The translations under genes and the position numbers were made by a program. The notes under the pieces are model-generated. The model had not been told where the DNA came from, made no database searches, and worked only from the letters and a program-made list of their open reading frames with translations. A DNA stretch of 64,000 nucleotides from Bdellovibrionaceae bacterium UBA2339 (lineage in GTDB: Bacteria > Bdellovibrionota > Bdellovibrionia > Bdellovibrionales > JAMPXM01). Shown here in pieces: positions 2,175-62,600 of the stretch (position 1 is the first letter of the stretch; each line of letters begins with the position of its first letter). The stretch covers positions 31,752 to 95,751 of the forward strand of contig DDUL01000056.1 of assembly GCA_002344785.1 (NCBI GenBank), written 5' to 3'.

Positions 2175-2191
2175 AGTCGTGAGGTGAAATC

Positions 2192-8200: not shown

Positions 8201-8464
8201 TGCCAAGAAACTTGCCCGGCTGACGCGATCGTCTTTGGCGACCTCAACAACAAAGAGTCGCGTGTCGCGAAGCTGTTTGCGGAAAAGCGCGCTTACACAT
8301 TGCTTGAAGAACTCAACAACCAACCTCGAGTTCGTTATCTCACACGCGTTCGCCATGCCGAGCGCGTGGACGAGAAGCACGGACACGGCGGTGGACATGC
8401 GGCGGGACGGGCCGAGGACCGTCAAGATCAAACGACATGTGCGTTTGAAGGTGGGCTGGTATGA
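5291..8464 (+). CDS. actB: Alternative Complex III subunit ActB (molybdopterin-oxidoreductase-like plus 4Fe-4S ferredoxin domain)
   Basis: 1057 aa. Twin-arginine signal [15 protein letters not shown]. Cys clusters [44 protein letters not shown]. Start is uncertain: GTG 5291 or ATG 5303/5306. Confidence 0.85.
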
Positions 8465-46680: not shown

Positions 46681-46724
46681 AACGCGGCTGGTAGAGATTC
46701 ATTTCGATTAGAGGGTTGAGTTCA

Positions 46725-47420
46725 ATGTGTGCATCGTTTCTTTTGCGACAAGCTGACGCGCGCGCCATTTCAGCGGCCTTAGGTGCTCGCATTCACCCCG
46801 ACGCTGAATTGGAGTGGCCGAACTTGACGGAACAAGTTTTGCGGCCGCATCAGCGTGCGATGGTGATCGTTCGTGAGTCAGGGAATTCCGAATTGCGTGC
46901 GATGAATTTTTCTCTCGTCCCGAGATGGTCGAAAGAGCGACGTCCTAAGTTTGCCACGCACAATGCGCGATTGGAGAGCGTCGCCGAGAAGCCAACTTGG
47001 CGCGATGCCTTTCAGAAGCGACCCTGTGTCGTGCCGCTCACCGAGTTTTACGAGCCAATTTATGAAGGAGAATGGGCCGGACATATGGTGGCCTTCTCGC
47101 GATCCGAAGCTCAGTGCTTGTTAGCTGCTGGGATCTGGGAGGAGTGGTTGGATCAAGCGACAGGTGAGGTTTTGCAAAGCTTTGCGATCTTGACGACAGA
47201 TCCGCAGCCAAGTGTTTTGAAGATCGGTCACGATCGCAGTCCGGTGTTTTTGGGTCTTGACGACGCGAGAGCTTGGCTTGCGCAGGCTGACTCACCGGAG
47301 AGCCAAAGACTTAAGGCTGCGGAACGAATCGCGAAGCTCAAGGCCGGCGAAGAGTACTACGAATTCACGGTTCGTTCGCAGCGGGTGATGAAGTCCGCGA
47401 GGGCTCAGCGAACTCGATAG
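46725..47420 (+). CDS. SOS response-associated peptidase (SRAP/YedK family)
   Basis: Starts MCASF (catalytic Cys2 after Met removal). HNARLESVAEKPTWRDAFQKRPCVVPLTEFYE. The listed ORF start 46716 is an upstream TTG. Confidence 0.8.
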   Translation: MCASFLLRQADARAISAALGARIHPDAELEWPNLTEQVLRPHQRAMVIVRESGNSELRAMNFSLVPRWSKERRPKFATHNARLESVAEKPTWRDAFQKRPCVVPLTEFYEPIYEGEWAGHMVAFSRSEAQCLLAAGIWEEWLDQATGEVLQSFAILTTDPQPSVLKIGHDRSPVFLGLDDARAWLAQADSPESQRLKAAERIAKLKAGEEYYEFTVRSQRVMKSARAQRTR

Positions 47421-47989
47421 TGAAGACGGCCGATCGGTTGGCCTTCAAACTGTCGAGCGATACTCTGGCGTTGGAAGAACTCGCTGGGCTTAAAGTCGCG
47501 AATTAGAATTTGGTCTCGCAAGTCCGAATCAAACTCAAGGTTGAAAAACTGCATATCGCAAACGACCCAGTCGCCGCGATCCACGTCATGAGCTTCGGGT
47601 GAACAAATTGCCGTCGCGGTGGCAGGCGAAGTGGCAAGCGACGTCGTTGATCCTGATGACGAGCCTGATGACGAGATAGAAGTTTGCGTGGCCGATCCAG
47701 CGAAGTGACCGAGTTGGGCTTGGCGAATCAGTGTGAACGAATGAGGGCGCCCTGTCAGTGCGGCCGGCAGCTCGAGGCGAAGCTCGTTGGCGGCTCGACC
47801 ATTGGAATTGTAGGCATCCGCGTCCGACTTGATTTCGAAAAATGCGGCGGATTGCAGTTGCGGATCAAGAGTCGGAATTTCATAGATCGCTTTAACGCTC
47901 GCCACGGCGTTGGTTGAAAGCATCATTCCAAAAATGAGGAAACTGAAAGCCTGCTTGATGATGTGCTGAGAGACTTTTCGATTTTGCAT
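47405..47989 (-). CDS. Secreted protein, unknown function (194 aa)
   Basis: Signal MQNRKVSQHIIKQAFSFLIFGMMLSTNAVA, Ser/Gly-rich stretch. 3' end overlaps SRAP by 16 nt. Confidence 0.5.
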   Translation of the reverse strand: MQNRKVSQHIIKQAFSFLIFGMMLSTNAVASVKAIYEIPTLDPQLQSAAFFEIKSDADAYNSNGRAANELRLELPAALTGRPHSFTLIRQAQLGHFAGSATQTSISSSGSSSGSTTSLATSPATATAICSPEAHDVDRGDWVVCDMQFFNLEFDSDLRDQILIRDFKPSEFFQRQSIARQFEGQPIGRLHYRVR

Positions 47990-48048
47990 TTTCACCTTAT
48001 CCCTCGTTATTCGATCGTCGAACCAGTTAGGTTTGGCAGTCCTTGAGT

Positions 48049-50130
48049 TCAGGTCTTTGCAGTAAACTTTCGCAACACATATCGAGTGGCTCGAGTTGCT
48101 CCGAGGCGCTTCACCCAACCTTGCTCTTGGAGCTCATTGAGATCGCGAAGTGCCGTGGCTCGAGAGATGCCGTTGCGATCTCGATGTTCTTCCATCGAAA
48201 TCGATCCCAACTTAGCAATTTCCCTAAGGAGCAGCAACTGACGGAGATTGAGATTTGTGTCGAGGTCTAAGTCGATCGTGGTCGGGGCGTTTGTTGGCAC
48301 CTCCGGACTCCGGCGCGTCGAAGTCATACCAGATATCGAATCCTCTAATGCCAGCGCTTGCGGCGATGATCTCGTCGAAGTTGCTGCGGACTCGGGCGTC
48401 CAGACATGCACTTGCAGTTGGAGGTGATTGAGATGCGGTTTCCAGCGAATGAGTGAGCCGCGACGCTCGATGGCGTCCATACCAAGCTCTTTGCGAATTC
48501 GAGTGAGCGTGACCGCAATCAATCGATCATGAATCTGAGGCTGATACTTGTAGCTCCAAACGAGGTGTACAAAATCCTCGACGTTCACTTCGCCACTTTG
48601 CAGGACTTGCAAGGCTTTCAATAAGGTCGGGCGTCGGCCTAACTGCGTGATGCGTGTGTCGGGCCGATCGAAGATCACCGCAAGTTGATGGGGGAGTCCG
48701 AGCAGCAAGTGCACGGCCTCTGGCTGAAGAGGAGGACGTCCTTCTCGCGTCCAAGCATCCCGCAATGTTCCAAGTAGGCCAGCGCGAAGTGAAGCGAGAA
48801 AGCCGAGATCCAGGGCGTCTCCCAGTTGATCTTCGCCTTTTTTGAAATCTAGGTCCGTGCCCATCGACGTTTTCGCGCTTCGAGCGAAAGTTGGCTTCGA
48901 GTTGGGTCCAATCAATTGTCGCCCAAAAATTCGCTGTGTGATGCGAGCCTCAATTTGAATCTCGCGCTGAGCCTCATTGGCGGGTGAGCGTCGCGCAGTC
49001 TTTGCTGCACGAGTCTGAGTGGCTGAGGCTTGCGTGGGATCGATGACATTGAGTGCGACGAGCATTTGATCCAGCTTTTGTAGAAGCGGAGGATCCAAGA
49101 TCTCATCGCCTCCTTCCGTCAAACAGAACTGTTTGGCGGAAGCGATGGCCAGGCGGGCATCGGACCAGCGTCCATCGAGTCGAGCCAGCCAAGCGAGTCG
49201 GGCATGAAGGAGCGAGGCTTGTGTTCGATTGCGACTCCCGAGAATGGCGTCAGCGGCCAACTCCAAAACTTCTCGAGCGCGACGAACTTGCCCTCGGAGT
49301 GCAAGTTGCTTGGCCAACTCAAGGCGAAGTTCGCTTTGTGAGTAGGAGTCATGCGGCACCCAAGTTTTCAGCGCCATTTCAAGTCGGTGAATGCTGCTTT
49401 TCCAATTCAGTTGCGGAAGTCCGTGGGCCACCTCGTATTTCAATATGGAAATTCGAATGGCGAGTGCTAGGCCCTCATTTTGAAGCCTGTTCGCGATCTT
49501 CAAGGCTTGACGAAGTTGCCGGAGGCCGCGTCGGACTTGCCCCGCGCGGATCAGTGAATGGCCGAACAAGTCGGTTGCCAGAAGTCGAGCAAAGTCCCAA
49601 TTTTCGATTTCGGCTGCGCTCATCGCGCTTTGTGCGAACTCGATGGGTCGTTTGGACTCGCCCGAGAAGTAAGCCATGAAGCCTTGGGCTTGAGCGATGA
49701 AGAAGTCGCTTAAGGCTGAGTTGTCGCTTGCTTTGCTCTGAGTCCGGCGATTGGCGCCGGGTTTGGCATTCGTGATTGTGGATCCGGATGCAGATCCGGA
49801 TGCAGTTGAAGGTCGAGACGAATTCGTCTTCGTGAGTTGCTTGAGGCGAGCTTCAGCGCCGCGCGAGCCTTTGATCTCGCCTGCGCGAGTGAGGCCCAAG
49901 ATCAGAAAGAACTCGACGGCATCCGAATTAGCTTGGTTCGATCCGCGGTGCGAGAGTTTTGAAGCAGGTGCGAGGGCGAGTGCTCGCTCTAAGTCGCCGG
50001 TGAGGACCAAAGCGCCGATGTACCAATGAAGTCCACCACTTCGGCGAAGTTCAGGAAGTGGAAGGCGCAAGATCTCGTCGAATTTTCCGCGGTCGAGGAG
50101 GTCGCGTGAGTGTCGGGCGAGGTCGCGCAT
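48049..50130 (-). CDS. Large putative transcriptional regulator: TPR-like helical repeats plus OmpR-type winged helix plus C-terminal wHTH
   Basis: Helical-repeat N-terminal roughly 400 aa. VEDFVHLVWSYKYQPQIHDRLIAVTLTRIRKELG resembles a Trans_reg_C winged helix. C-terminal LRQLLLLREIAKLGSISMEEHRDRNGISRATALRDLNELQEQGWVKRLG is HTH-like. Confidence 0.55.
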   Translation of the reverse strand: MRDLARHSRDLLDRGKFDEILRLPLPELRRSGGLHWYIGALVLTGDLERALALAPASKLSHRGSNQANSDAVEFFLILGLTRAGEIKGSRGAEARLKQLTKTNSSRPSTASGSASGSTITNAKPGANRRTQSKASDNSALSDFFIAQAQGFMAYFSGESKRPIEFAQSAMSAAEIENWDFARLLATDLFGHSLIRAGQVRRGLRQLRQALKIANRLQNEGLALAIRISILKYEVAHGLPQLNWKSSIHRLEMALKTWVPHDSYSQSELRLELAKQLALRGQVRRAREVLELAADAILGSRNRTQASLLHARLAWLARLDGRWSDARLAIASAKQFCLTEGGDEILDPPLLQKLDQMLVALNVIDPTQASATQTRAAKTARRSPANEAQREIQIEARITQRIFGRQLIGPNSKPTFARSAKTSMGTDLDFKKGEDQLGDALDLGFLASLRAGLLGTLRDAWTREGRPPLQPEAVHLLLGLPHQLAVIFDRPDTRITQLGRRPTLLKALQVLQSGEVNVEDFVHLVWSYKYQPQIHDRLIAVTLTRIRKELGMDAIERRGSLIRWKPHLNHLQLQVHVWTPESAATSTRSSPQALALEDSISGMTSTRRSPEVPTNAPTTIDLDLDTNLNLRQLLLLREIAKLGSISMEEHRDRNGISRATALRDLNELQEQGWVKRLGATRATRYVLRKFTAKT

Positions 50131-50225
50131 GGAGTGAATTATGCATCATTTCGCTTCATTTGTGTAACTACATTCGCATCGCTCCACGACGGCGCAAGTT
50201 CTACAACTGAGGCTGGAGGTGAGCT

Positions 50226-51392
50226 ATGTCGAATACTCAGTTCGTAGTCGCAACTCTTCGGCGAGTGGTCGGGGAGCGTTTGGAAGCGCAGGAGTCGAGG
50301 TCCTCCTCGAATCTGGTGAGAGCTATTGCGGTCTTGGCCATGTTGACGTCGATGTCGACGGCCTGCCAATACAATGACCTCAAGGCCGGCTCTCAGGCCG
50401 CCTCACGTCCTGGAAGTTCGGGCACGGCTCCTCAGCCTGGTGGCGGTGGATCTGGTCCAGGTCCTGGGATCGCGGTTGTCGACTATCAGTTGGTGCGTGA
50501 GCAAATCTTTGTGCCGCATTGCTTGCGATGCCATTCGAGCGAGGCCGGAGGTGTTCGCCGAGGTGGAGTGGCGCTGAACACTTTTGCCGAGGCTCAGCCG
50601 ATTGCGGCGTCGATTGCCGAGCAAATTGAAACAGATCAAATGCCACTTCGGGCACCGGCATTGCCGGGAGATCTCAAAGCCCTCATTCGCGCGTGGGTGG
50701 ATGGCGGGGCTGTCGAAGTGGCACCCGCGTCGGGCGTCCGACCGAGGCTTGGAGATCAGTCGAATTTCCGCCGCTCGAAAGATCATCAGCGTACTTTGGC
50801 TCGAATGAACCCGATTCGCGCCGTGATACAGGGATTGATTCTTCCAAGTGTGAGTGAAGCGAAGTCCTCTCTCGCGTCGATGCCGCAAGTTTATGAATTG
50901 GAAAAGGCCAGTCTCGAGTTTTTGGCGATTGGACGTCCGAGTTTTCTCAAAATTCGCGGTGAAGGTGCTCGACCAGAGGGCGAATTCTCGGTGAAGGACG
51001 GGGAAATTCAGGGAATCGCACATGTCGATTTGCGTAGTCTCAAAACTGGTATTGAGCTTCGCGACGAGCATCTTCACGAGCGGTATGCGCAGACCGACAA
51101 GTACCCAAAGGCCGAGCTGAGTTTCCAGATCGTTCAAGAGCGGATCGGTGCGATCATGGCCGACCAATCGGTGGACTTGCAGATCAGTGTTCCTGGACGA
51201 CTTCGTTGGCGGGAGCGGGAGCACGAGTTGCCTATTCAAGTTCAGCGAAAGAAGTCACAAGTTGAAGTGGAATTCAAATTTCGTTTGAGCGACTTTGGCA
51301 TCGAAACGCCTCAGTATGCTGGAGTCAAGGTCGCCGACGAAGTCCAAGTCAAAGTCCTTTCGCATGTTCGCGCTCGAAAACTTGATCAGTGA
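50226..51392 (+). CDS. Lipoprotein with a PSCyt1-like single CxxCH domain fused to a YceI-like domain
   Basis: LAMLTSMSTAC lipobox-like and a Gly/Pro linker. IFVPHCLRCHS...GVALNTF...QMPL...LKALIRAWVDGGA. C-terminal HVDLRSLKTGIELRDEHLHERYAQTDKYPKAELSF is YceI-like. Confidence 0.6.
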   Translation: MSNTQFVVATLRRVVGERLEAQESRSSSNLVRAIAVLAMLTSMSTACQYNDLKAGSQAASRPGSSGTAPQPGGGGSGPGPGIAVVDYQLVREQIFVPHCLRCHSSEAGGVRRGGVALNTFAEAQPIAASIAEQIETDQMPLRAPALPGDLKALIRAWVDGGAVEVAPASGVRPRLGDQSNFRRSKDHQRTLARMNPIRAVIQGLILPSVSEAKSSLASMPQVYELEKASLEFLAIGRPSFLKIRGEGARPEGEFSVKDGEIQGIAHVDLRSLKTGIELRDEHLHERYAQTDKYPKAELSFQIVQERIGAIMADQSVDLQISVPGRLRWREREHELPIQVQRKKSQVEVEFKFRLSDFGIETPQYAGVKVADEVQVKVLSHVRARKLDQ

Positions 51393-51399
51393 GGTCAAT

Positions 51400-52647
51400 A
51401 TGGACCGTATTCAGATACCTACAAATTCGCGATTCGAGTTTGAGATCAGGCATTCATGGAGAACGCGCAATTTCTTTGAAATGGCACTTCGAGATTTGAA
51501 AGGTCGGAAATTTGCTCAAGGGCTGGTTGTTTTGGCTATGGCACTTCCGTCCATCGCAATGGCCTATCCCGAATTGACTCGGCATGGATCTGTGAGCTGC
51601 ACCACGTGCCACTTGTCGCCTGCAGGTGGTGGTGCATTGACGATCTACGGAAGATCCATGTCTCGCGAAATTTTGAGTCGTTGGGGCGGTCCGAATGAGG
51701 AGAGAGTTCTCCACGGGTTATTGGGTCGTGATCTCGATCAGAAACTTGATGATTTGGGATTGAGGCTGGGTGGTAACGTTCGTGGTCTGCAGTCACACAG
51801 GGAAAACTCCCGAGTTCGACAGGGGCAATTCTTCTTGATGCAGGCGGATCTCAAACTTGGTGTGGAGCTGGAAGAGTGGGTGGCTTACTTGAGTGCGGGT
51901 GAAGTTGAGAATCCTCGGTCGAGTGAGCCGCGAAGAACGCTAAACTCTTCGGAGCACTGGGTGATGTGGCGGCCCTCGACTGAAACTCAACAGTGGGGCG
52001 TGCGCGGAGGGCGTTTCCCGCTCACTTTTGGCGGCCTGCAAGCGGATCATACATTGAGCGTGCGAAAGCTGATGTCGTTGGGACTTTCGAGCGCTCGCAC
52101 AAGTCTGGAGATTTCAGGTGCTGGGGAAGAGCAAACTTGGCAGCTCGGCGTCTCGATGCCAGCAAGTGGAAGTCCTCGCGATGAAGAGGAGCGGGCTTTA
52201 GCCGCGCGAGTCGATCGAGGCTGGTCGAAGAGTTGGCGGGCGGGCGCGAGTCTTTGGCGAGGAGAGCTTCGCGATGGATCGCGAGTCGCGGGAAGCTTTC
52301 ATGCACTGGGAAGCTGGAAAGAAGTAGGTCTCAAGCCCTATCTGCAAGTTGAGTCATTGCATCTTCTTCGGCGTCGCGACCAGCTTGCCGACGTGGTGTC
52401 ACACGCTATGCTTTTGCGAAACGGATTAGAGTTGACGCGTGGACTATTTGGAATATTGCAGATTCAGCACGAGCGAGGCGACGTGCAGTTGCATGCGAGC
52501 GAAGTCAATCGCTATGGATTGGGTTTGCAGGTGTTTCCGCGCCCGCACTTTGAGATCTACGGATTGTGGCACAGAGTTCATCGTCCGTTCGCGAGCCTCG
52601 ACACATGGAGCGATGAAGCCTTTGCGGTTTTTCACTATTACTTGTGA
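51400..52647 (+). CDS. Exported protein with N-terminal CxxCH motif and predicted beta-barrel body (415 aa)
   Basis: GAGG Shine-Dalgarno 6 nt before ATG 51400. Signal FAQGLVVLAMALPSIAMA, then HGSVSCTTCHLSPAGGGALTIYGR. About 330 aa of alternating hydrophobic/polar strands ending in the aromatic tail FAVFHYYL. Confidence 0.55.
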   Translation: MDRIQIPTNSRFEFEIRHSWRTRNFFEMALRDLKGRKFAQGLVVLAMALPSIAMAYPELTRHGSVSCTTCHLSPAGGGALTIYGRSMSREILSRWGGPNEERVLHGLLGRDLDQKLDDLGLRLGGNVRGLQSHRENSRVRQGQFFLMQADLKLGVELEEWVAYLSAGEVENPRSSEPRRTLNSSEHWVMWRPSTETQQWGVRGGRFPLTFGGLQADHTLSVRKLMSLGLSSARTSLEISGAGEEQTWQLGVSMPASGSPRDEEERALAARVDRGWSKSWRAGASLWRGELRDGSRVAGSFHALGSWKEVGLKPYLQVESLHLLRRRDQLADVVSHAMLLRNGLELTRGLFGILQIQHERGDVQLHASEVNRYGLGLQVFPRPHFEIYGLWHRVHRPFASLDTWSDEAFAVFHYYL

Positions 52648-52700
52648 AACACTGCATAGAATGATGCTTTCGCACGCGAGCTTCGCCAAGACTGAGGCGC

Positions 52701-54116
52701 ATGTGCGTGAAGGAGAAATCATCGTGGGGATGGCAAGGACTGAAGTCGCATTTCGTTGGGACTTTGGCGAGTCTCGGGCTTTTGGGCACTGTTGGTGGTT
52801 TTGCAGCCAGCGTGGCTCAGGCCCAATCGAAGCATCGCCCAGAGATTGGTGCGGAAAGCACCCCAGCGAGTGAGGCGACGAGCCGTTCTGCAAGTGGGGC
52901 TTGGCCTGAAGCTTTGGCACCTTTGAAGCCCAGTTTTCTATTGCTTTGTCAGAATTCACCCACTGTGGCCAGTCTGAAGTCGCAAGTTGCACTTGCTGAA
53001 GACAGATCCGATTTGGCTGAGAAGTGGTATTGGCCACGAATCGCGGCGAGCGCAGGTGCGAGTGTGAGCGACGCAGGGGCTGGGGCGGGTGCGCTGAATT
53101 CAAATTTTCTGGCACTTCGCGCCGATTTGAATTTGCCGGCACTGTTTTCACCTCGAACAGAGGCGCATCGCTCGCGAGTCGAGCACTTGCGTGCGTCGTG
53201 GCAAAGCCGCCTGGAATTACAACGCTTGGCTTTGAGTGTGGTCGATCAGATTCTTGTCGCCAGTTCGTTTGCTAGCCGCGACCAAGATTTGGCGGAGAAC
53301 GAAGAACAACTGCAGCGGCAGTTTCGGATCCTCTCGGGATCAGTCCGTCAGGGCCTGGCTCGGCAAAAGGATCAACAGAAATTCGAGGCGGAAATTTTAA
53401 AGCTGCGTGAGACGCGGCTGAATCTTAAGCGGTCGCAAAAGGAAGCCTTGGAGCGACTGAAAGTCTTGTTGGGTGAAGACTTGCCGGCTTCGAGTCTCGC
53501 CATTTCTTGGAAAAGTATGGCGAGTCTTGAGCCGGCATCACTCATGAGCGTAAAGACGTCACCAAGTCTCGAAGTGGCTCGACTCAAATGGGAGTCCGCA
53601 CAGCTCAATGAGCGCCTTCAGCAACAGCGAACGGGGCTCGTCACACAAGTTTCGGCCTCCTATGGCTTGCGGAGATCGCCGATTGAATCTCAATTGTCTT
53701 TGGATCAAACGCGTTCCATGTCGGCAAGCGTGAACTTTTCATTGCCGATCCTGGATTGGGGAACTGATGCACTTCAACGCCGAGAAGCCGTTGAGGCCAA
53801 AGTCGTGGCTGAGCGCGAGTGGCGAGAGGCCGAGCGGCAATTCGTGGCCGAGCGGGCATTGATTGTTGATGAAGGCGAGCGTTTGAAAGAGAGACGGCAG
53901 CTTGCTCAGCGGCTTTTCGATCTGGAACGAAAGAGTTTTCAGCAGATCATGGTGGATTATCGAGAGGGTCGAACAACATATTTGGATTGGTTGAGTGCGA
54001 GTCAAAACTTGCGTGCTGCCGTCCAGTCGCAAATCGAGTTAGCCAATGAATGGGCGAAATATTGGCTCCGAGTGCAGAGCTTTCGAGGAGAACTTGCTGA
54101 TGAAGTTTGTCCGTAA
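52701..54116 (+). CDS. TolC-family outer membrane efflux protein
   Basis: Signal GTLASLGLLGTVGGFAASVAQA. Two coiled-coil/beta repeats with typical ...ARLKWESAQLNE..., ...DWLSASQNLRAAVQSQIELANEW. Confidence 0.8.
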   Translation: MCVKEKSSWGWQGLKSHFVGTLASLGLLGTVGGFAASVAQAQSKHRPEIGAESTPASEATSRSASGAWPEALAPLKPSFLLLCQNSPTVASLKSQVALAEDRSDLAEKWYWPRIAASAGASVSDAGAGAGALNSNFLALRADLNLPALFSPRTEAHRSRVEHLRASWQSRLELQRLALSVVDQILVASSFASRDQDLAENEEQLQRQFRILSGSVRQGLARQKDQQKFEAEILKLRETRLNLKRSQKEALERLKVLLGEDLPASSLAISWKSMASLEPASLMSVKTSPSLEVARLKWESAQLNERLQQQRTGLVTQVSASYGLRRSPIESQLSLDQTRSMSASVNFSLPILDWGTDALQRREAVEAKVVAEREWREAERQFVAERALIVDEGERLKERRQLAQRLFDLERKSFQQIMVDYREGRTTYLDWLSASQNLRAAVQSQIELANEWAKYWLRVQSFRGELADEVCP

Positions 54117-55014
54117 GGAATTCGCTGTTCTTTCTGATGCTGGCCGCAGCACTTTAGGTCATTGCGATGCGATGAAATTGTTGGTTCTGTGCATTGCTGT
54201 GTCGGTCGTGAGTGGATGTGGAAACAAAAGCCGGGGTGAGCTCCCGACGGCCAAGGCCGAGGTCGGCGACCTTCATCAAACTGTCGCGATCAGTGGAACA
54301 GTGAAGGCCAAGCGCGAGAGTTTTTTGCCCGCTCCTTATGCGGGCTATGTGCGAAAACTCTTTGTTGAGGTGGGGTCTCAGGTCAAAAAGGGTGATCCGC
54401 TGATCACCATCACCGCCAATCTTTCGCCTGAAGAAGTTGGATTTCCGATGCGAGCAGCCTTCGACGGGATGGTGAGTCAGGTGCTTCGCTCAGAAGGAGA
54501 CTACGTCACCAACTCGGGCCAAGAGGCGCGCCTACTTAAAATTGAAGACCGAAGCCAGATGCAGATTGAGTCAGATGTTCCGGAAGCGGACTTCACCAAA
54601 GTGAAACTTGGCCAGAGAGCACGGATTCGCGTCAACGCCATTCAGGGTGTTGAGTTTGATGGTGAGATCGTTCAGATCTTTCAAGCGGCTCGTGAGGCTG
54701 ATAATTCCTGGGATCGAAAGGGCGGAAGTTTTCCAATTCGAATTCAGCTGAAGAATCCGACGCCGGAAGTTGTGTCGGGACTTTCGAGTGTGGTGGAGAT
54801 CCGAGTGGCCTCACGTGAGAAAGTTCTCCGCTTACCGCAGGAATTTGTGTTGCGAGAGCAGGGCCGATTCGCGGTGATCAAGAAAAAATCCAATGCGCGT
54901 GTTGAGGTCAAGACGGGACTTCGCACGGAGAGCTTCATTGAAATTGTCGAGGGGTTGAGCGCTGGGGATGAGGTGGTGTTTCCGCTTGCCAAGGACGCGG
55001 GAGACTCGAACTGA
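54100..55014 (+). CDS. Periplasmic adaptor (membrane fusion protein, MacA/HlyD-like)
   Basis: Lipobox LCIAVSVVSGC. GTVKAKRE..., VKKGDPLITI (lipoyl-like) and beta-barrel segments. GAGGAG Shine-Dalgarno before ATG 54100; alternative start at 54172. Confidence 0.8.
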   Translation: MKFVRKEFAVLSDAGRSTLGHCDAMKLLVLCIAVSVVSGCGNKSRGELPTAKAEVGDLHQTVAISGTVKAKRESFLPAPYAGYVRKLFVEVGSQVKKGDPLITITANLSPEEVGFPMRAAFDGMVSQVLRSEGDYVTNSGQEARLLKIEDRSQMQIESDVPEADFTKVKLGQRARIRVNAIQGVEFDGEIVQIFQAAREADNSWDRKGGSFPIRIQLKNPTPEVVSGLSSVVEIRVASREKVLRLPQEFVLREQGRFAVIKKKSNARVEVKTGLRTESFIEIVEGLSAGDEVVFPLAKDAGDSN

Positions 55015-57170
55015 TGCCTGGTGATGCTGCCGGACGTAGGGGAATAGAGTCTGAGTTGCAACAGGCCGCACCGGTTTTGGAGCTACGAAACCTCAAACTC
55101 GACTATTTGACCGAAAATCGAAAAACCGAAGTTCTGCGAAACTTGAGTTTCCAGATTGATTCCAAGGCGGATTTGTCGCGCGGTCGGAAGCTTGCGATTT
55201 GCGGGCCATCAGGCTCGGGAAAATCGACGCTACTTTACATTTTGGGCGGATTGTTGAGGCCCACGTCCGGTAGCGTAAGTGTCTTCGGTCAGGAAATTTG
55301 GAGTTGGGATGAAGCTCGGCGCGCGCGGTTTCGCGCATCGAGCATCGGCTTTGTGTATCAAAATTTCCATCTCTTGCCAGCTTGGTCGGTGCTCGACAAC
55401 GTGATGTTGGGTGCGGACTACGTGAGCGCCGAACAAGTGCCGAGCTTGCGTGAGCGCGCGATGGGCTTGTTGGATCGGCTGGGACTCAAAGGACTTGAAG
55501 CACGAACGCCATCGCAACTTTCTGGTGGTCAGGCGCAACGAGTCGCGATTGCGCGAGCTCTTCTCATGAATCCACGAATTATTTTGGCGGACGAGCCCAC
55601 CGGGGCTTTGGATTCGGCGACGGCTCAGGAGATCATGACGATTTTCGATGAGCTGTGTGACGAAGGGCGCACGGTGATTCTGATCACGCACGACGAGGGC
55701 GTGGCACAGTCCTGCGAGCAGATCATTCGGCTTCGGGAAGGCGAGTTGGATCGAATCGATGAACCCGATATTCAGGATTCTCGGTCCTTAAGTTCGGCAG
55801 TCGAGGAGGTGCGCTGGTCGACGTCGCCGACGAAGGAGGCTTTGGGGCTGGGAGGATCGGGTTGGTCGGCGGTTCTTCAGCCGTTGATCTGGCGACGCGC
55901 GTGGAGTTCATCGTGGAAACTGCTTCGTCGAAATCCGTCTCGGAACTTACTGACGCTGTTTGGTGTCGCCATTGGCGTCGCAGCCGTCTTGTCGATGATC
56001 ACCATCGGGCGCTTCGCTCGAGAGCGAATTTTGGAATCTTACGATCGTCTTGGAGTTCGAAGCTTTCGAGTTTGGGGATACACGAATTGGAATTTGCCCA
56101 TCAGCACGCCGCTCGAAACTTATTTTCGCGAGTTTAAGGATGAAGAGTTGGCGGCATTGACTCGACTGTTTCCGGATCTTGAGCACTATTCACCGACGGC
56201 GAATTTTTGGGGCGGTCAAGTTTCCTATGGCGGAAGAACTGTCACCGAAGATGTCAGTATGATGGGTGTTAACGAGCATGGATTGAGGCTCAATGAATTG
56301 AGCCTTCGCTCGGGTCGTGGAATCTCAGCCATTGATGTCTTGGAACGCAATGCGGTTTGTGTGATCGGTTCTGGGGTGGCCCGTGAGCTTGAGTTGACGA
56401 ATCTGGATTTTTCGAATCATCAAGCGGAAAAGCCGCTACTGTTTATCAAGACGAATCGTCTGAATTTCGCCTGCCGAGTTGTGGGATTGCTCGCCGAACC
56501 AAAGTCCGCATCCAGTCGTCGGGGTCGCGTCGGTCAAGAATTGATCTTGCCACACTCTTATGTGCGGGCGATTCGCGGTGAGAGTCCAAATTCCAACGAA
56601 GGGGATTTTAACAATGTGATTTTCGAGGTGAGGCCTGGCGCGGATCCGCAAATGTTGTCAAAACATGTCGAGCAATTCTTCAAACAGAAGTATGGCGTTG
56701 CCGGAGATTTTCGTGCGAGCACCAATAATCGAGTCCTTGAGCAGATGCAGAGATTTTTAGAAATCTTCAATGGCCTTTTGATTGGCGTCGCCTTTGTCAC
56801 GCTGATCGTTGGCGCGACGGGTGTGACGAATATGATTCTTGTTTCTCTTGGCGAGAGGTTGCGAGAGCTGGGACTTCGGCGCGCTGTTGGCGCTGAGCCG
56901 CGTGATCTGCGGGCGATGGTCATTGGCGAGTCGATGGCGCTTTGTGGATTGGCCGGATTGGTGGGACTTGTTTCTTCCATTCTGCTTTTGCATTTGGTTT
57001 TGTATGGAGTTTCTTTGGCCTTTCCGCAGGTGAAGTTTGTTTGGACCTTCGATCTTTTGGCGATCTCGATGAGTCTGATTTCGATTGTTTCGGTTGGGAT
57101 TGGGTCGGGATTGTATCCGGCTGTCCGGGCCGAGCAGTTGGATGTGGTCGCGGCCTTGCGGGCTGAGTGA
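55014..57170 (+). CDS. MacB-type ABC transporter, fused ATPase-permease (FtsX/MacB periplasmic domain)
   Basis: Walker A GPSGSGKST, signature LSGGQAQRVAIARAL, Walker B ILADEPTGALD. Then 4 TM with a large periplasmic loop. Start overlaps the MFP stop. Confidence 0.9.
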   Translation: MPGDAAGRRGIESELQQAAPVLELRNLKLDYLTENRKTEVLRNLSFQIDSKADLSRGRKLAICGPSGSGKSTLLYILGGLLRPTSGSVSVFGQEIWSWDEARRARFRASSIGFVYQNFHLLPAWSVLDNVMLGADYVSAEQVPSLRERAMGLLDRLGLKGLEARTPSQLSGGQAQRVAIARALLMNPRIILADEPTGALDSATAQEIMTIFDELCDEGRTVILITHDEGVAQSCEQIIRLREGELDRIDEPDIQDSRSLSSAVEEVRWSTSPTKEALGLGGSGWSAVLQPLIWRRAWSSSWKLLRRNPSRNLLTLFGVAIGVAAVLSMITIGRFARERILESYDRLGVRSFRVWGYTNWNLPISTPLETYFREFKDEELAALTRLFPDLEHYSPTANFWGGQVSYGGRTVTEDVSMMGVNEHGLRLNELSLRSGRGISAIDVLERNAVCVIGSGVARELELTNLDFSNHQAEKPLLFIKTNRLNFACRVVGLLAEPKSASSRRGRVGQELILPHSYVRAIRGESPNSNEGDFNNVIFEVRPGADPQMLSKHVEQFFKQKYGVAGDFRASTNNRVLEQMQRFLEIFNGLLIGVAFVTLIVGATGVTNMILVSLGERLRELGLRRAVGAEPRDLRAMVIGESMALCGLAGLVGLVSSILLLHLVLYGVSLAFPQVKFVWTFDLLAISMSLISIVSVGIGSGLYPAVRAEQLDVVAALRAE

Positions 57171-57357: not shown

Positions 57358-58992
57358 ATGATGCTTCGAAATTCAGTCGAGCCACAGGTCCGGGAGCCGG
57401 ACCAAGTCGCAGATTATGGGCTGAGGGCCGTGGGCCTCGGGCAGCGAATTCTTTGCGGCCTGTTGGTGTTGATGACTCAATTTTTGATGATTGCGAATGC
57501 ATCGGGTGAACTTCGTTGTGAGGCAATGTTTTGGCCCGCCGAGACTCGCGCGATGGAGTTGGAGCGTGTGGCTCGGGCGAACAAAATTTTGGCTCGTGAG
57601 CTTTCGGCTGAGCAGAGGCGTGCGTTGGTTGAGGCGCATCGAATCGGATTGGGTGAGTTGGGGCGTGATGGCCAAGAAGCGAGCGTCGGTCACTACACTT
57701 GGTCGCAACTTCGTCGGAAAGCCGATCATCTGATGGCGCGAGGATTCTCTCGAGTTGAGATTCGGCTTTTGATGGAAGCGGGAATTCTTGGGCGAGAGCC
57801 TGTGCGGAGTTGGACAGAAGAGCTTCGTTTGGAGCCCGGAGAAACTGTACTGGTCACTCGCTGGGATGGCGGTTTGCCACACCTGTATCACTTCGCTTCT
57901 GAGTTTAGGCCTGGCACGGGTTCCGTGGGTGGTTCGCTTGGGCAAGTGCCGATGTTGAGATTGAAAGAAGCCGACGGTCGAGTTGTCGACATGCAAGTTT
58001 CTGAAGTCAAAGATCTTGTTCGGGCGCGACCCTTCTATGCGCGAGGTGAACGGCTGAATGTGCAGTGGCTGGATGGCGCTGGTCGAGTGCTGCAGAAGCA
58101 GGGATTGTTTCAGGGCATTGAGGCTGGACACTGGCGATTCACGGAGCTGAACTCTTCGCAAACATGGTCAGTGAGTGTGGACGCACTTCGCGTGGCGATG
58201 AGCTCCGGGCGCGGTGGTATTCAGAGATTGGATGCCACATTTTGGAGTTCGCGCTGGGCGCTTCGACGAGGTGAGGATCGAGTTGAAGTGCGATCTTGGC
58301 GCGGAAATTATCAGGGACTGTTTGTTGATGAGACGCCGGATCGCTTGATCCTCATTCGCGATCGAGTGGTGATCGAAATTGAAAAATCGCAGATGCTGGG
58401 CTTAAGAAGAATTCGAGAGTTTAGCGATCCGTCGGTTCCGCCACAGGCATCGGCAAACGCGCAGCAAAGAGCGCGATCGCAAGAGAATACATGGCGGCCG
58501 TTTTCTTGGACAGATTTGCGAGGGACGACGAGGGATTCGGCCGCTGGGCCAGGTGGCGATCGCGGTGATCGACAGGCGTTCGCTGAGCAAGCTCAGCGGC
58601 AAGCGCATCAGCGCGATCAGCACAGTCACCGAAATCATCAGAATCAACGGCAGGCCACGCGCCCGCAGTCAGTGAATGTTCGCGAGTTTTTGAGTGCACC
58701 GGAGGCTTTGCTTCGCGACGCCAATCTTGATGCGCCAGAGGTGCAGACTTGGCGAAATTGGATGATGGCGTTGAATCCTTCGCGCAATGTTGAGGCGGCC
58801 GCATGGGTGATGGGATTTCGTGATGTGAAACTGATATCAAAGCACGAGTTGAAGCTCGCCTATCGTCGCCTTGCGCGAAGACTTCACCCTGATCTCAATC
58901 GGGATCGTCCGTTGCACGAGCAGCTGCAGATGGAAGAGATGCTCAAGCAAGTGAATCTCGCGCACCAAGTGCTTGAAAAGCACTTACCCTAA
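57358..58992 (+). CDS. Signal-peptide (or N-anchored) protein with C-terminal J domain
   Basis: N-terminal RILCGLLVLMTQFLMIANASG. C-terminal LKLAYRRLARRLHPDLNRDRP...MLKQVNLAHQVL with HPD tripeptide. The middle roughly 400 aa has no motif I recognise. Confidence 0.7.
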   Translation: MMLRNSVEPQVREPDQVADYGLRAVGLGQRILCGLLVLMTQFLMIANASGELRCEAMFWPAETRAMELERVARANKILARELSAEQRRALVEAHRIGLGELGRDGQEASVGHYTWSQLRRKADHLMARGFSRVEIRLLMEAGILGREPVRSWTEELRLEPGETVLVTRWDGGLPHLYHFASEFRPGTGSVGGSLGQVPMLRLKEADGRVVDMQVSEVKDLVRARPFYARGERLNVQWLDGAGRVLQKQGLFQGIEAGHWRFTELNSSQTWSVSVDALRVAMSSGRGGIQRLDATFWSSRWALRRGEDRVEVRSWRGNYQGLFVDETPDRLILIRDRVVIEIEKSQMLGLRRIREFSDPSVPPQASANAQQRARSQENTWRPFSWTDLRGTTRDSAAGPGGDRGDRQAFAEQAQRQAHQRDQHSHRNHQNQRQATRPQSVNVREFLSAPEALLRDANLDAPEVQTWRNWMMALNPSRNVEAAAWVMGFRDVKLISKHELKLAYRRLARRLHPDLNRDRPLHEQLQMEEMLKQVNLAHQVLEKHLP

Positions 58993-59060: not shown

Positions 59061-62000
59061 TTAGGGTTGGTAAGTGATTCGCGGCAAGAAGGCCTGTTGG
59101 TCTTGTCCGACTCCGCCGCGAAAGTGTCGTCCTTGTGCGGAGAGTAGCACAAGCGACTCTGGCCCCGCGCCCTTGACGACGCTCAGAGTTTGCGTCTGAC
59201 CCGGAGACAAGGTCCAGTGGGATGGGAGTTCGCTGAAGCCTTGAGCCTCGGGCCTTAGATTCAGTGTGAACCACTCAGCTTGGCCGGCATTCAAGAAGTC
59301 GTCGGGCTCAATCGCTGATCCGGTTTGCGCACTTGTGCCGATGCGCGCTTGTAGAGAACCATCGGCTTGTGTCGCCAAAAGTCCAATCGGCGCTTCGATG
59401 AGGGCAATCGTCGAGAATTCCTTTGAAGTGAACTTGCCGAGATTGAGCAAGGCGGGGCGGAAATCCAGTTTGGGTTCCGGGCTCTGCGGCGCGCGCGGTG
59501 CTTTGAGAGCCTGCTCAAAGGCCGTGCGAATTTGCCGGAGCATCGGCACGTCGAGCAGCAGGCTTGCAAATCGCGTCTCGGTGAAGCCCGCCAGAGAGTC
59601 CATGCGTGCGCCAGCAAGTTCTTGGTCGGCGATCGCATCACCGTCGCGATCCAGTAGCAAAGAGAACTCGCACAAGTCCCATGTGGTCATCGGCTCGTAG
59701 AGCTTGATGGCAAGTTGCAGTCGTGCCCCTTCGGCGTGAGGTTGGACTCGGTAAGCCGCAAGCTCAAGATCGCAGTAGCGAGATCTTGAAGTTTCGCCGA
59801 TGGGATCAGGTTTGCGTGCGTCGCGAGAGATCAGGTTGAAGGGTAGAACCTCAACATTGTGAACGCCGGCATTCTTGATATCAAAATCCACCACGGCGCC
59901 TGTCGAGTCCGCTGCCGAAGTTGAGCGAACTTTGAGGTCGGTCACTTCAATTGGACTCACTTGACTGAGAAGCGCCAGCACGGGCACGCGGGCAAGCTCG
60001 GCGCCTTGCAGGTCGCGGAGTACGGCGAAGCCGGAGGCCTCGGAGAAATTGGCAGATTGATTGGGCGGCTGAATCAACGTGAAGCGAAGTGCGCTTCGCG
60101 TTGTCTCCTGGGCTTTGACAGCAACAGGATGTGGCGCCTGCATTCGCAAGTTTGGTGTGTGATCTTCAAGCACCCATTGTGCCTGAAGATCTTGATGAAG
60201 GGCGCGAACTTCGACGTGTTGGAGCAGAGTTTTTTGGGACTCGACTTGCTGTGGGCCAAGCGAGAGCGCGGCTGGGTATACCAAAGCTTGGGCGTCGAGA
60301 GTCTCGACGATGCGAACACGACCGGCGCCTTGGCGAGCCACGGAGTAAAGTTCGCCATTGGCTGCGCGAATTGGTTTTGCGCGATTCATGACGAGAGCTT
60401 TGCGTTCGGCCACGCTGAGCTTGGGGTAAGCTTGATGGAGCAAAGTCATCACGCCGGCCATGTGTGGCGCCGCCATGGAGGTTCCTGACATCTCAACGCC
60501 ATCATCGCCGCTTCCCATTGCGGCTGAGAGAATTTTTGAGCCCGGTGCTGAGATCTCTGGCTTGATACGAGCATCGATGGAGCGTGGTCCTCGCGAAGAG
60601 AAGCCCGTGATGGTGTCGATGAGCTCAGGCTTTTCGATCACGCGCGTGCTGGTCAATTCGATCCTCAGCGTTTCCGACTTCAGAATCTCTTTGAGCTTTT
60701 CGCCCATAGCCTTGGTCACCATGATGCCAGGAATATTGAATTTGTCGGTATCGCCACCGCCCATGCGAATGGCTTCACCGTCTTGGTTGTTGAGCATCAC
60801 GACGCCGATGGCGCCTGCGGCCTCGGCGCGGCGAATTTTTTCTGCGAACGAAACTTGGCCGCGATCGATGAGTGCGATTTTCCCTTGAATGAGAGCGGCG
60901 GTTTCTGGGCTGAGATCTTGTGCGGCCAACCCGATATACAGGGCTTCGGCCTCGACCTGACCGGAGTTGGCCAAGGGTTTTGTGATCGTGCCTTCGATGG
61001 CTTCAACAAGAAACTCAGGTGTTGACTGAGGCAAAATTCGCGCGGCCCGAAAGCGCCAATTGGTATCGGCATTGTCGACGGAGGCGGCGACCGAAATGGC
61101 GGCATCAGCCACGCCGGGCGCGCCGACGATGAATGGCATGTCGCCGGAATTTCCACCTGAAGCGACGACCGAGGTCCCGCCGCTGGCCAGGTTGGAGATG
61201 GCTTCATTGTAGAGAATTTGCCCGTCGCCATAGCCAGATCCCAATGACAAATTCACCACATCCAGGCGATCGCTGGGGTCGCCATCGCCATTAGGGTCGG
61301 CGGCAAATTCAAGAGCTGCGACAACAACGGTGTCATTGGTCGAGCCTTGGGCGCCAAAGACTTTGAGTGCGTAGAGAAGTGCATCGGGCGCGACACCATC
61401 GTAGGTTTTCACACCATCGCCAACTCCGGCGACACTGCCGGCGACGTGCGTGCCGTGGCCGCCTTCGTCGAGTGGATTCTGGTCCACTTTAGGAATTCGT
61501 TTTTCAAAGAGTGGTGACGAGGTGTTGTAGTCAGTCCCGACAAAATCGAGTCCGCCAACAACTTTCGCATTTGGGTAAGAGGGATGAGGAGCCGAAGGGT
61601 CGATGGCCTTGAAGGCGTCGGCTGTGCCAACGCCGCCAAACATCTTATGGGTGTAGTCGATCCCTGAGTCGATGATGCCGACACGCAGGCCTTGGCCGCG
61701 AAGCCCGCGAGCGTGGGCTTCGAGTGCGCCAATGAATTTCGCTGAGGTGCGATCAAAAGCCGTTGAGGTTTTGATGTCTGGATCTGGTGTATTGGTTGCG
61801 ATGATCGGGCGCGCGAAATCGACGGCGCGTTCGATGCGAGCCACACCGGCGATCTGGCCGATGGACTCAAGCAGTGAAGTTGGCGCCACCACGGCGAAGC
61901 CATTGACGACAAAGCGGTAGCGATAAATCACTTTGATTTCTGCGGACAGGGCGTGAAGCTTTTTGAGCACTTGGTCTTGAGCTTCGCTCAGGGCCAGCAC

Positions 62001-62345
62001 TTGTTCTTGAGTGGGTTGAGACTGCTGCGCAAAAAGTGCGGGTGTTTCGAGTTTAATCAAGAAATAGCTATGAGTCTCAGGATCTGGCCGGGTTGAGAAT
62101 ATGCGCCAGAGGTCCGTTGGCCAAAGATCTTCCGGAGAGTGTGACTGAATGAGTTGATGGGAGAATTTCTCAGTCCATTGATCTGCCGAACATCCCGCCA
62201 ATGTTGCGGCGAAGACCAGCATCGAGATGCCGAAGCTTTTAAATCTAGAGGTGCGGTTCGTCGCGTGGTGAGTGGTCGCGTGGTGAGTGGTCGCATGAAG
62301 ATGAGAAGAGACCGACGTTGATGGACCGCGAACATTGGATCGCAT
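59061..62345 (-). CDS. Subtilisin-like S8 serine protease lipoprotein with PA domain and long C-terminal extension
   Basis: Catalytic triad contexts GIIDSGIDYTH, GGHGTHVAGS, SGTSMAAPHMAG. PA-like insert GKIALIDRGQVSFAEKIRRAEAAGAIGVV. Lipobox FAATLAGC. ATG 62345 chosen within the longer ORF. Confidence 0.9.
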   Translation of the reverse strand: MRSNVRGPSTSVSSHLHATTHHATTHHATNRTSRFKSFGISMLVFAATLAGCSADQWTEKFSHQLIQSHSPEDLWPTDLWRIFSTRPDPETHSYFLIKLETPALFAQQSQPTQEQVLALSEAQDQVLKKLHALSAEIKVIYRYRFVVNGFAVVAPTSLLESIGQIAGVARIERAVDFARPIIATNTPDPDIKTSTAFDRTSAKFIGALEAHARGLRGQGLRVGIIDSGIDYTHKMFGGVGTADAFKAIDPSAPHPSYPNAKVVGGLDFVGTDYNTSSPLFEKRIPKVDQNPLDEGGHGTHVAGSVAGVGDGVKTYDGVAPDALLYALKVFGAQGSTNDTVVVAALEFAADPNGDGDPSDRLDVVNLSLGSGYGDGQILYNEAISNLASGGTSVVASGGNSGDMPFIVGAPGVADAAISVAASVDNADTNWRFRAARILPQSTPEFLVEAIEGTITKPLANSGQVEAEALYIGLAAQDLSPETAALIQGKIALIDRGQVSFAEKIRRAEAAGAIGVVMLNNQDGEAIRMGGGDTDKFNIPGIMVTKAMGEKLKEILKSETLRIELTSTRVIEKPELIDTITGFSSRGPRSIDARIKPEISAPGSKILSAAMGSGDDGVEMSGTSMAAPHMAGVMTLLHQAYPKLSVAERKALVMNRAKPIRAANGELYSVARQGAGRVRIVETLDAQALVYPAALSLGPQQVESQKTLLQHVEVRALHQDLQAQWVLEDHTPNLRMQAPHPVAVKAQETTRSALRFTLIQPPNQSANFSEASGFAVLRDLQGAELARVPVLALLSQVSPIEVTDLKVRSTSAADSTGAVVDFDIKNAGVHNVEVLPFNLISRDARKPDPIGETSRSRYCDLELAAYRVQPHAEGARLQLAIKLYEPMTTWDLCEFSLLLDRDGDAIADQELAGARMDSLAGFTETRFASLLLDVPMLRQIRTAFEQALKAPRAPQSPEPKLDFRPALLNLGKFTSKEFSTIALIEAPIGLLATQADGSLQARIGTSAQTGSAIEPDDFLNAGQAEWFTLNLRPEAQGFSELPSHWTLSPGQTQTLSVVKGAGPESLVLLSAQGRHFRGGVGQDQQAFLPRITYQP

Positions 62346-62600
62346 GTTTCCCCCTCGAATGATTGCCGCTACGAATCCCAAAAAAGCGGCGATGGACCTC
62401 TTGCACTTTTCCCAGCGTCGGATGAATTCGGCGAGGCTTTGCCGAGCTTGGCTTGGCATCGCATGGCTTGATCTGACGCTGGTCCCTCAAAAGTGCGGTC
62501 GGTCGTCTCGCGCGCCGTAGGAAAGCATTGCCCCTTGGGCCTCGGCAAAGAGTATTTCGCTGAGCTTTGATTTCAAAACTCACTGTTCATAGGAGCTTGT

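Follow-up and report, generated by a model that had tools for sequence, protein, structure and literature searches.

A Conserved Unit of c-Type Cytochrome, YceI Lipocalin, and Cyc2-Like Porin in Bdellovibrionota

Introduction

The subject of this work is a group of five neighboring genes of Bdellovibrionaceae bacterium UBA2339 (GTDB lineage Bacteria; Bdellovibrionota; Bdellovibrionia; Bdellovibrionales; JAMPXM01). The window, that is, the whole stretch of DNA analyzed, comprises 64,000 nucleotides (nt) of contig DDUL01000056.1 of assembly GCA_002344785.1 (positions 31,752 to 95,751 of the forward strand), and all the coordinates given below are counted within it. The first two genes (gene 1 and gene 2) code for predicted exported haem proteins, and the other three for an efflux pump of the TolC–MacB type. 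A preliminary description, made from the sequence alone, had joined all five into one trans-envelope assembly. The comparison with related genomes gives a different picture: the conserved unit is composed of a c-type cytochrome, a YceI protein, and a Cyc2-like porin, and the pump is a clade-specific neighbor, not a conserved component of this module.

Both parts of this unit have characterized relatives. Cyc2 is an Fe2+ oxidase, with examples such as Cyc2 of Acidithiobacillus ferrooxidans, Cyc2PV-1 of Mariprofundus, and Cyt572 of Leptospirillum (PMC8406198). It has been defined by a signal peptide, one CXXCH, a 16-strand porin modeled on the templates OprO and OprP, and two motifs: AXPXFAR[Q/K][T/Y], upstream of the haem site, and PXL, four residues downstream (PMC8406198). 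Ubiquinone-8 co-purifies with YceI lipocalins, which recurrently occur in linkage or fusion with cytochromes (PMC9113575, PMC8981238). One such lipocalin, BcnA, acts with its partner cytochrome b561 in guarding the envelope from lipid peroxidation, and in alphaproteobacteria the two are fused (PMC9113575). Cbp2D and Cbp2E of Cellvibrio and Saccharophagus carry the YceI-like domain X158 together with the c-type cytochrome domains X183/X132, and the cytochrome domain has been shown to act as an electron donor outside the cytoplasm (PMC8981238).

Organization of the Locus

The genes and features of the locus are the following.

47405–48118, minus strand: small secreted protein of cluster c8, downstream of the regulator gene, without Pfam or NCBIfam match
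48049–50130, minus strand: large regulator with a C-terminal winged helix (HTH_DeoR, E 2.4e-6; MarR_2), divergent from gene 1
50131–50225, no strand: putative divergent promoter/operator region, with the palindrome AATTATGCATCATT at 50137–50150 (83% mean identity in four relatives)
50226–51392, plus strand: gene 1, lipoprotein with a class-I-type c haem module and a YceI lipocalin domain (PF04264); CLRCH at 50520–50534, YceI domain at 50949–51356, candidate ligand Met139
51400–52647, plus strand: gene 2, Cyc2-like fused monohaem cytochrome–porin (from CxxCH, AlphaFold2, Foldseek, and hhalign); signal peptide, CTTCH at 51598–51612, predicted 16-strand barrel at about 51760–52641
52648–52700, plus strand: spacer of 53 nt, with the conserved element TGAAACACTGCATAGAATGATGC directly after the gene 2 stop (comparison of four relatives)
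52701–54116, plus strand: TolC-family outer-membrane factor (OEP, PF02321, E 5.8e-16)
54046–55014, plus strand: membrane-fusion (adaptor) protein (MFP; TIGR01730, 114 bits against a cut-off of 94.9)
55014–57170, plus strand: MacB-type ATP-binding cassette (ABC) transporter, with fused ATPase, periplasmic core, and FtsX permease (MacB PRK10535, E 9.6e-93)

The tight packing of five open reading frames (ORFs) on one strand, from 50226 to 57170, agrees with the preliminary description, as do most of its distances. Genes 1 and 2 are separated by 7 nt, provided that gene 2 starts at the ATG at 51400 (with a GAGG Shine–Dalgarno sequence), and the TolC-like gene follows gene 2 after 53 nt; the stop of the MFP gene and the start of the MacB gene have 1 nt in common; and the regulator gene is divergent, 95 nt upstream of gene 1. 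The overlap reported for the TolC and MFP genes is true only of the longest ORF, and disappears if the MFP starts at the ATG at 54172.

The Gene 2 Family

Gene 2 encodes a protein of 415 amino acids from the ATG at 51400; an alternative ATG at 51481 starts directly at the signal peptide. By inspection, this signal peptide has a hydrophobic core followed by the junction AMA/YPELT, and A-x-A-type sites before F/YPE are present in all the aligned homologues. The mature N-terminus is closely followed by a single CTTCH (residues 67–71). In the AlphaFold2 model, with a predicted local distance difference test score (pLDDT) of 78 and a predicted template modeling score of 0.74, 16 strands are arranged as a barrel between residues 121 and 414, and the N-terminal region with the haem motif is helical and of lower confidence. 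The signal peptide, the lone CxxCH, and the barrel had already been proposed for this protein, and all three stand, the barrel as a prediction; the aromatic C-terminus proposed along with them does not, the sequence ending in HYYL, with Leu as last residue. Foldseek searches of the PDB with the model place OprO (4rjw) at rank 1 and OprP (2o4v) at rank 3, and a sequence search of the PDB with the gene 2 profile gave nothing meaningful, which leaves the family with no relative of solved structure. Many Glu, His, and Arg residues are conserved in the barrel.

No Pfam or NCBIfam family matches gene 2, and the 50 homologues obtained by a word-indexed search are all unnamed or "hypothetical". Nevertheless, the family is large. 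At E <= 0.001, an exhaustive search with its profile yielded 2640 representatives, of which the best 150 are listed and are all close family members, and 844 representatives at E <= 1e-30; at this last threshold the family comprises more than 800 clusters (50% identity). Its most conserved block, in an alignment of 25 sequences reaching down to 25% identity, is FPELxRHGYxSCTxCHVSPxGGGALTxYGR, in which C67, C70, H71, and the GGG are invariant. To collect loci, one genome per GTDB species was scanned, which yielded 164 relatives; the window and the best 80 of these, with Bdellovibrionota-type names and a few labeled "Pseudomonadota", "Deltaproteobacteria", or "uncultured bacterium", make up the 81 loci considered hereafter. 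Exactly one CxxCH is found in the gene 2 homologue of all 81 loci and in 143 of 144 further 50%-identity representatives, the lone exception being a truncated sequence, so that the motif that the preliminary description had singled out is indeed conserved.

Relation to Cyc2

A canonical Cyc2 set was assembled by scanning metagenome contigs for the back-translated canonical motif, which gave 73 full-length sequences of the form ..IPAFARKYGLPCSACH..WPxLN.FG... The profile–profile comparison (hhalign) of the gene 2 family with these 73 sequences has a probability of 96.9% and an E of 1.8e-10 over 328 columns, and brings the haem motifs into register; restricted to the haem region, it still reaches 96.3%, against less than 1% for the reversed-sequence controls. 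Gene 2 and Cyc2 share the signal peptide, the single CxxCH at the mature N-terminus, and the OprO/OprP-like barrel of 16 strands (predicted in the case of gene 2). Around the haem site, both display A-x-P-x-hydrophobic-x-R, five residues, CxxCH, and then L-T/N-x-F/Y-G, and in the consensus of the gene 2 family (A-F-P-E-L-x-R-H-G-Y) the A, P, and R are spaced as in the Cyc2 motif. From these sequence features and models, gene 2 very probably works like Cyc2 and is a remote homologue of it. The suggestion of a minimal porin–cytochrome conduit, made in the preliminary description, fits both this probable remote homology and the OprO/OprP matches, while its statement that no characterized system of this kind exists is wrong for gene 2, Cyc2 being characterized.

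The two families differ in several respects. Canonical Cyc2 has CH-x3-P-x-L, whereas the gene 2 family has an invariant GGG insertion before L-T-x-Y-G-R. It is also shorter, with a median of 368 amino acids, and 47 of the 144 representatives fall below 365 amino acids, the minimum length for Cyc2 in FeGenie. It is restricted to Bdellovibrionota, and YceI lies upstream of it in 76 of the 81 loci, in contrast to the canonical Cyc2 loci, none of which (0 of 120) has a YceI gene nearby. The usual motif and hidden Markov model (HMM) screens for Cyc2 probably miss the gene 2 family.

Gene 1 and the Conserved Neighborhood

The product of gene 1 has 388 amino acids, and its ATG is preceded by the ribosome-binding site GGAGGTG. 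Residues 242–377 match the YceI domain (PF04264) with 53.7 bits, against a curated cut-off of 23.7 (E 4e-14), and a single CLRCH is found at residues 99–103. At the N-terminus, a hydrophobic stretch ends in STAC47, a lipobox-type Cys followed by QYNDLK; the junction Cys-Q/N-Y-N-D/E-L-K recurs in homologues from other genomes, which argues that gene 1 is a lipoprotein. The preliminary description had seen in it a lipoprotein joining a PSCyt1-like haem motif to a YceI-like domain. The YceI domain, the CLRCH, and the lipobox are all there, but gene 1 itself scores only 14 bits against PSCyt1 (PF07635), below the cut-off of 22, although homologues of the same cluster pass it (L068, 34.8; L009, 33.8; and L074, 28.8 bits). 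The N-terminal domain clusters with lipoprotein cytochromes of 1–4 haems that pass the cut-offs of PSCyt1 and Cytochrome_CBB3, and the CxxCH and MP motifs are kept in the fused gene 1 homologues.

The fusion of cytochrome and YceI is confined to the shallow clade of the window; elsewhere, the two are separate adjacent genes, and the standalone YceI homologues have Sec signal peptides. A joint function of the two parts is suggested by the fusion in the window's clade (the Rosetta-stone argument). For the whole set of loci, neighbors were typed by tblastn with the window proteins and by clustering of all the flanking ORFs. The gene directly upstream of the gene 2 homologue is a YceI gene in 76 of the 81 loci. 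Among the 62 loci with at least 3 kilobases (kb) of upstream flank, YceI is found in 58, a c-type cytochrome partner in 54, and both in 51. This partner, homologous to the N-terminal half of gene 1 and usually placed just before YceI, mostly has two CxxCH (range 1–4). The partner cytochromes are lipoproteins of modules of about 90 residues (..F.P.C..CH .. MP .. W.. G.PE) that pass the PSCyt1 and Cytochrome_CBB3 cut-offs, the gene 1 module being below them. This conserved linkage, together with the invariant CxxCH, supports the earlier idea of genes 1 and 2 as exported haem proteins that function as a pair.

Two further observations concern these neighborhoods. A cytochrome b562-like protein (PF07361, E 8e-7; representative ORF at 3583–4002 of L023) is found directly upstream of YceI, and in loci with this gene (L008, L012, L033, L040, and L050) the c-type partner is missing or displaced. 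In some metagenome-assembled genomes (MAGs), two copies of the module lie on different contigs (L013/L014, L020/L066, and L071/L074), which indicates that paralogous modules coexist in one organism.

Comparison with Known Systems

The unit resembles several known systems without coinciding with any of them. In LcoA–BcnA, as here, genetic coupling joins a YceI lipocalin to a haem protein, up to fusion in some lineages, and a redox partnership between the cytochrome and the lipocalin that binds quinone is proposed. Nonetheless, the haem partners here are a c-type lipoprotein module and an outer-membrane cytochrome–porin, where LcoA–BcnA has a dihaem b561 of the inner membrane; neither the window locus nor the recurrent neighbor clusters showed a b561-type gene. 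Cbp2D is a secreted protein with the carbohydrate-binding module CBM2 that serves lytic polysaccharide monooxygenases, whereas gene 1 is a lipoprotein without such a module, paired with a porin–cytochrome. With MtrAB, PioAB, and MtoAB the likeness is one of concept, electrons crossing the outer membrane by way of haem placed in or at a barrel; however, these systems have a 26-strand barrel and a separate decahaem protein, in contrast to the 16 strands, the one fused haem, and the partners of 1–4 haems of the present case. The association of haem with YceI is therefore not without characterized precedent, as the preliminary description had it, given LcoA–BcnA (PMC9113575) and Cbp2D (PMC8981238).

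In the literature searched, a Cyc2-like porin combined with both YceI and cytochrome c is undescribed: no open-access paper mentioning both Bdellovibrio and YceI was found, and the papers in which Cyc2 and Bdellovibrio are named together are metagenome surveys that do not analyze the gene 2 family. Cytochrome–porins and the pairing of haem with YceI each have precedents; what is new with respect to that literature is the distinct motif, the confinement to a predatory phylum, and the nearly obligate occurrence of all three parts together.

Metal and Redox Neighbors

A copper- or redox-type gene lies within 6 kb of the module in 29 of the 81 loci. The recurrent redox neighbors are an ankyrin–cupredoxin (15 loci), a multicopper oxidase (8), and the cytochrome b562-like protein (6), and the recurrent metal neighbors are CsoR (15), a Cu P-type ATPase with YHS and HMBD domains (7), and YHS proteins (7). 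The copper-type genes occur in at least two different gene arrangements. One large subclade (e.g., L020, L022, L059, L063, L065, L066, L069, L071, and L074) has a copper set made up of a CsoR-like repressor, a c2 protein of 195 amino acids, a dihaem cytochrome, an ankyrin–cupredoxin fusion, a Cu P-type ATPase, and a multicopper oxidase. This arrangement of cytochrome–porin, dihaem cytochrome c, and cupredoxin recalls the Cyc2–Cyc1–rusticyanin chain of the Acidithiobacillus rus operon. The accessory clusters c2, c8, c9, c10, c15, and c17 have no match in Pfam or NCBIfam.

Proposed Function

The conserved unit is probably an outer-membrane electron-transfer module for a small redox-active solute, possibly a metal ion. 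On balance, and with modest confidence, genes 1 and 2 are read here as a two-protein outer-envelope module of this kind, specific to Bdellovibrionota. What the analysis shows is the identity of the domains, the conserved haem motifs, the barrel prediction, the probable remote homology to Cyc2, and the statistics of gene linkage; that haem is attached and quinone bound, how electrons travel, on what substrate, and under which regulation, is what we infer for the module. The product of gene 2 would reside in the outer membrane, where a small redox-active solute would enter the pore and trade an electron with the c haem near the N-terminus, in the way proposed for Fe2+ and Cyc2 (PMC8406198). The product of gene 1, tethered to lipid and facing the periplasm, would bear a c haem of His/Met type (CLRCH and the candidate Met139), and would relay electrons between the haem of the porin and an isoprenoid quinone held in the YceI barrel. 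From there, the quinone link might continue to or from a respiratory or antioxidant chain, in either direction. The substrate would most likely belong to the metal cations (Fe2+ or Cu+), as suggested by the copper/iron gene context and the conserved Glu, His, and Arg residues of the barrel. The divergent winged-helix protein is probably a dedicated regulator, and the TolC–MFP–MacB genes would code for an ordinary tripartite ABC efflux system outside the module.

It is important to note that several results weigh against this interpretation. HMM-to-sequence scores between the gene 2 family and Cyc2 are of 10–22 bits in either direction, and an HMM built from canonical Cyc2 scores the family at 10–14 bits, the noise level; the homology with Cyc2 thus rests on profile–profile comparison, mostly of the short haem region, and the barrels alone reach an hhalign probability of 44% (E 2e-4). 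The family lacks both PxFAR[Q/K][T/Y] and PxL: FAR[QK] is absent in 144 of 144 representatives, and instead of PxL at +4 there is CH-V/L-S-P-x-G-G-G-A-L, with Pro at +3. Lacking these two published defining motifs, gene 2 is filed as a Cyc2 variant and not as a Cyc2 member. The AlphaFold2 model of gene 1, built from an alignment of 7 sequences, has a pLDDT of 47.8, too low for the model to be of use. With regard to the substrate, tblastn with the neighbor families found no copper genes in the window; the metal link is therefore drawn from other subclades. Bdellovibrionota are predators not known as iron oxidizers. For all the family members, the assignment to the module rests on sequence and models. 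Finally, a functional tie between pump and pair may exist within the clade of the window, where the genes are tightly linked and perhaps co-transcribed.

Alternative Explanations

One alternative is an envelope antioxidant like LcoA–BcnA, in which a quinol in YceI would quench lipid peroxyl radicals or other oxidants of the outer membrane and the c haems, that of the porin among them, would recycle the quinone, with no metal involved. BcnA and b561 offer a precedent for protection against lipid peroxidation (PMC9113575), no partner of gene 2 is more constant than YceI (76 of the 81 loci), and the variable haem partner, either c-type with 1–4 haems or b562-like, fits a generic supply of electrons. 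However, an open haem porin of 16 strands would be superfluous for a purely lipid-phase reaction, and the only characterized relatives of gene 2 oxidize dissolved Fe2+ (PMC8406198). The enrichment of copper-homeostasis genes would also be left unexplained. We consider this explanation unlikely.

Also improbable, in our view, is a copper device, oxidizing Cu+ (or reducing Cu2+) at the outer membrane for detoxification or acquisition. This idea draws on the CsoR-type repressor, Cu P-type ATPase, multicopper oxidase, ankyrin–cupredoxin, or YHS genes found within 6 kb at 29 loci, in more than one arrangement. Yet these loci come from a few subclades, so that they are not independent, and the window as well as 17 loci of the regulator type have no copper genes nearby. 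In addition, Cu+ oxidation by a Cyc2-type protein has no known biochemical precedent.

According to the preliminary description, the five genes would form one trans-envelope machine, with the haem proteins working with, or being served by, a MacAB–TolC pump, for example in the export of a tetrapyrrole, a quinone, or a lipid. Genes 3–5 do code for the parts of such a pump. The TolC-family protein matches OEP with 59.3 bits (cut-off 22), and the MacB-type protein matches ABC_tran (110.8 bits), MacB_PCD (90.9), and FtsX (51.6), all above the cut-offs; as in MacAB–TolC, the genes are translationally coupled. On the other hand, the MacB is divergent, scoring 311 bits against the MacB equivalog cut-off of 966, and the adaptor is atypical for MacA. 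The MFP matches HlyD_D23, and its two lipoyl half-motifs lie only about 12 residues apart, so that the long alpha-hairpin of typical MacA proteins seems to be missing from it; the MFP products of relatives match YknX-type barrel models, and a YknX-like adaptor beside a TolC-family gene is unusual. The MFP likely starts at 54100, whose equivalent is the start in the gene calls of the relatives, or at 54172, which would give a canonical lipoprotein signal (MKLLVLCIAVSVVSGC) and no overlap with the TolC gene.

In favor of a single machine, all five genes lie on one strand, the gaps being 7, 53, and about 0 nt, and no terminator-like hairpin was found in the 53-nt gap between gene 2 and the TolC gene. 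Furthermore, the order of the five genes is kept in three relatives, with the 53-nt spacer in P0001 (84% identity) and P0003 (71%), and with a spacer of about 150 nt in L002 (67%). What decides against it is the neighborhood analysis, whose outcome is one that the preliminary description had itself named as speaking against its model. The pump stands beside the pair in only 2 of the 81 loci, the window and L002, besides the closer relatives P0001 and P0003, and is missing from the other 79, where YceI and the cytochrome persist. The four pump-carrying genomes also share the flanking genes for a peptidyl-prolyl isomerase (PPIase), SRAP, DnaJ, and S8 peptidase proteins; the pump linkage is thus part of the general synteny of one shallow clade and amounts to about one evolutionary observation. 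The first half of the spacer (TGAAACACTGCATAGAATGATGC, 52648–52675) is nearly invariant in a comparison of four relatives (with L202, L203, and L002), in which the proteins are 67–84% identical, and in L002 only the segment directly after the gene 2 stop is conserved. This element, with a -10-like TAGAAT and an inverted repeat (GCAT..ATGC), could serve the pump genes as promoter or operator, and the conserved TAGAAT hints at a possible separate promoter for the pump. The five-gene machine is therefore quite improbable.

Finally, the notion that gene 2 is an ordinary OprO/OprP-type anion or phosphate porin, with an incidental CxxCH and a meaningless gene order, can appeal to OprO and OprP as best structural matches and to the most distant homologue, P0050, which matches Porin_O_P in Pfam, but is hardly credible when the CxxCH block is the most conserved part of a family of more than 800 clusters, lies in register with the haem motif of Cyc2, and is linked almost universally to haem and YceI genes.

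Regulator and Flanking Genes

The divergent regulator is a protein of 693 amino acids, with the HTH_DeoR and MarR_2 matches at residues 626–686. It had been described as a tetratricopeptide repeat (TPR)/winged-helix protein; the winged helix is real, and no TPR match was found at E <= 0.01. Its homologues lie divergently upstream of the module in 17–18 of the 81 loci. The identity of the intergenic region 50131–50225 in the four relatives (83% on average) compares with only 60–84% for the proteins. A possible operator shared by this region and the spacer between gene 2 and TolC, GCATCATT, was rejected, the octamer occurring 4 times in the window against 3.6 expected. Homologues of the c8 protein adjoin the regulator in 10 related loci. 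The small secreted proteins c8 and c15, of about 180–240 amino acids, have a common P-x-ELTG motif and no family match, and travel with the winged-helix regulator in about 17 loci (L001–L016, L024, L052, L054, and L081).

Elsewhere in the window, the System II genes for haem attachment are present, as reported: ccsB (ResB) and ccsA occupy 618–3979, which indicates that the organism makes c-type cytochromes by System II. They are followed by a 4Fe-4S protein of 1057 amino acids and an NrfD-type membrane protein (5291–9849), a gene set that looks like the alternative complex III type. Upstream of the module, a protein of 788 amino acids (44314–46680) has a cyclophilin-type PPIase domain as sole Pfam match (residues 485–634), with long hydrophobic stretches on either side, and an SRAP peptidase is found at 46716–47420. 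Downstream, there are a protein of 544 amino acids with a C-terminal DnaJ domain (57358–58992) and another of 1132 amino acids (59061–62459), whose counterparts in the relatives have Peptidase_S8 and PA domains. All these flanking genes of the PPIase, SRAP, DnaJ, and S8 types are syntenic in the closest relatives of the window.

Concluding Remarks

That the gene 2 family is a large unrecognized sister family of Cyc2, obligately associated in Bdellovibrionota with a quinone-binding YceI and a lipoprotein cytochrome c in a new outer-membrane conduit, is a possible, still tentative proposal, on the unlikely side. If it were true, the haem of a porin would be wired to a soluble or tethered isoprenoid-quinone carrier and not to a periplasmic cytochrome chain, and predators might use such a conduit for the redox handling of copper or iron, or for electron exchange with the prey or the environment.

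Cyc2 serves as a marker gene for microbial iron oxidation. A sister family present throughout a predatory phylum would mean that the fused cytochrome–porin design is broader than iron lithotrophy, and the gene 2 family would be a tractable case for other roles of these proteins. The pairing would also give a testable role to the poorly understood YceI family, that of a quinone link between an outer-membrane haem and the cell. As for annotation, more than 800 clusters of "hypothetical proteins" could be given a name, and the conspicuous MacAB–TolC neighbor should not be read as part of the system. The finding is relevant to extracellular electron transfer, the markers of iron oxidation, YceI proteins, and the physiology of Bdellovibrio.

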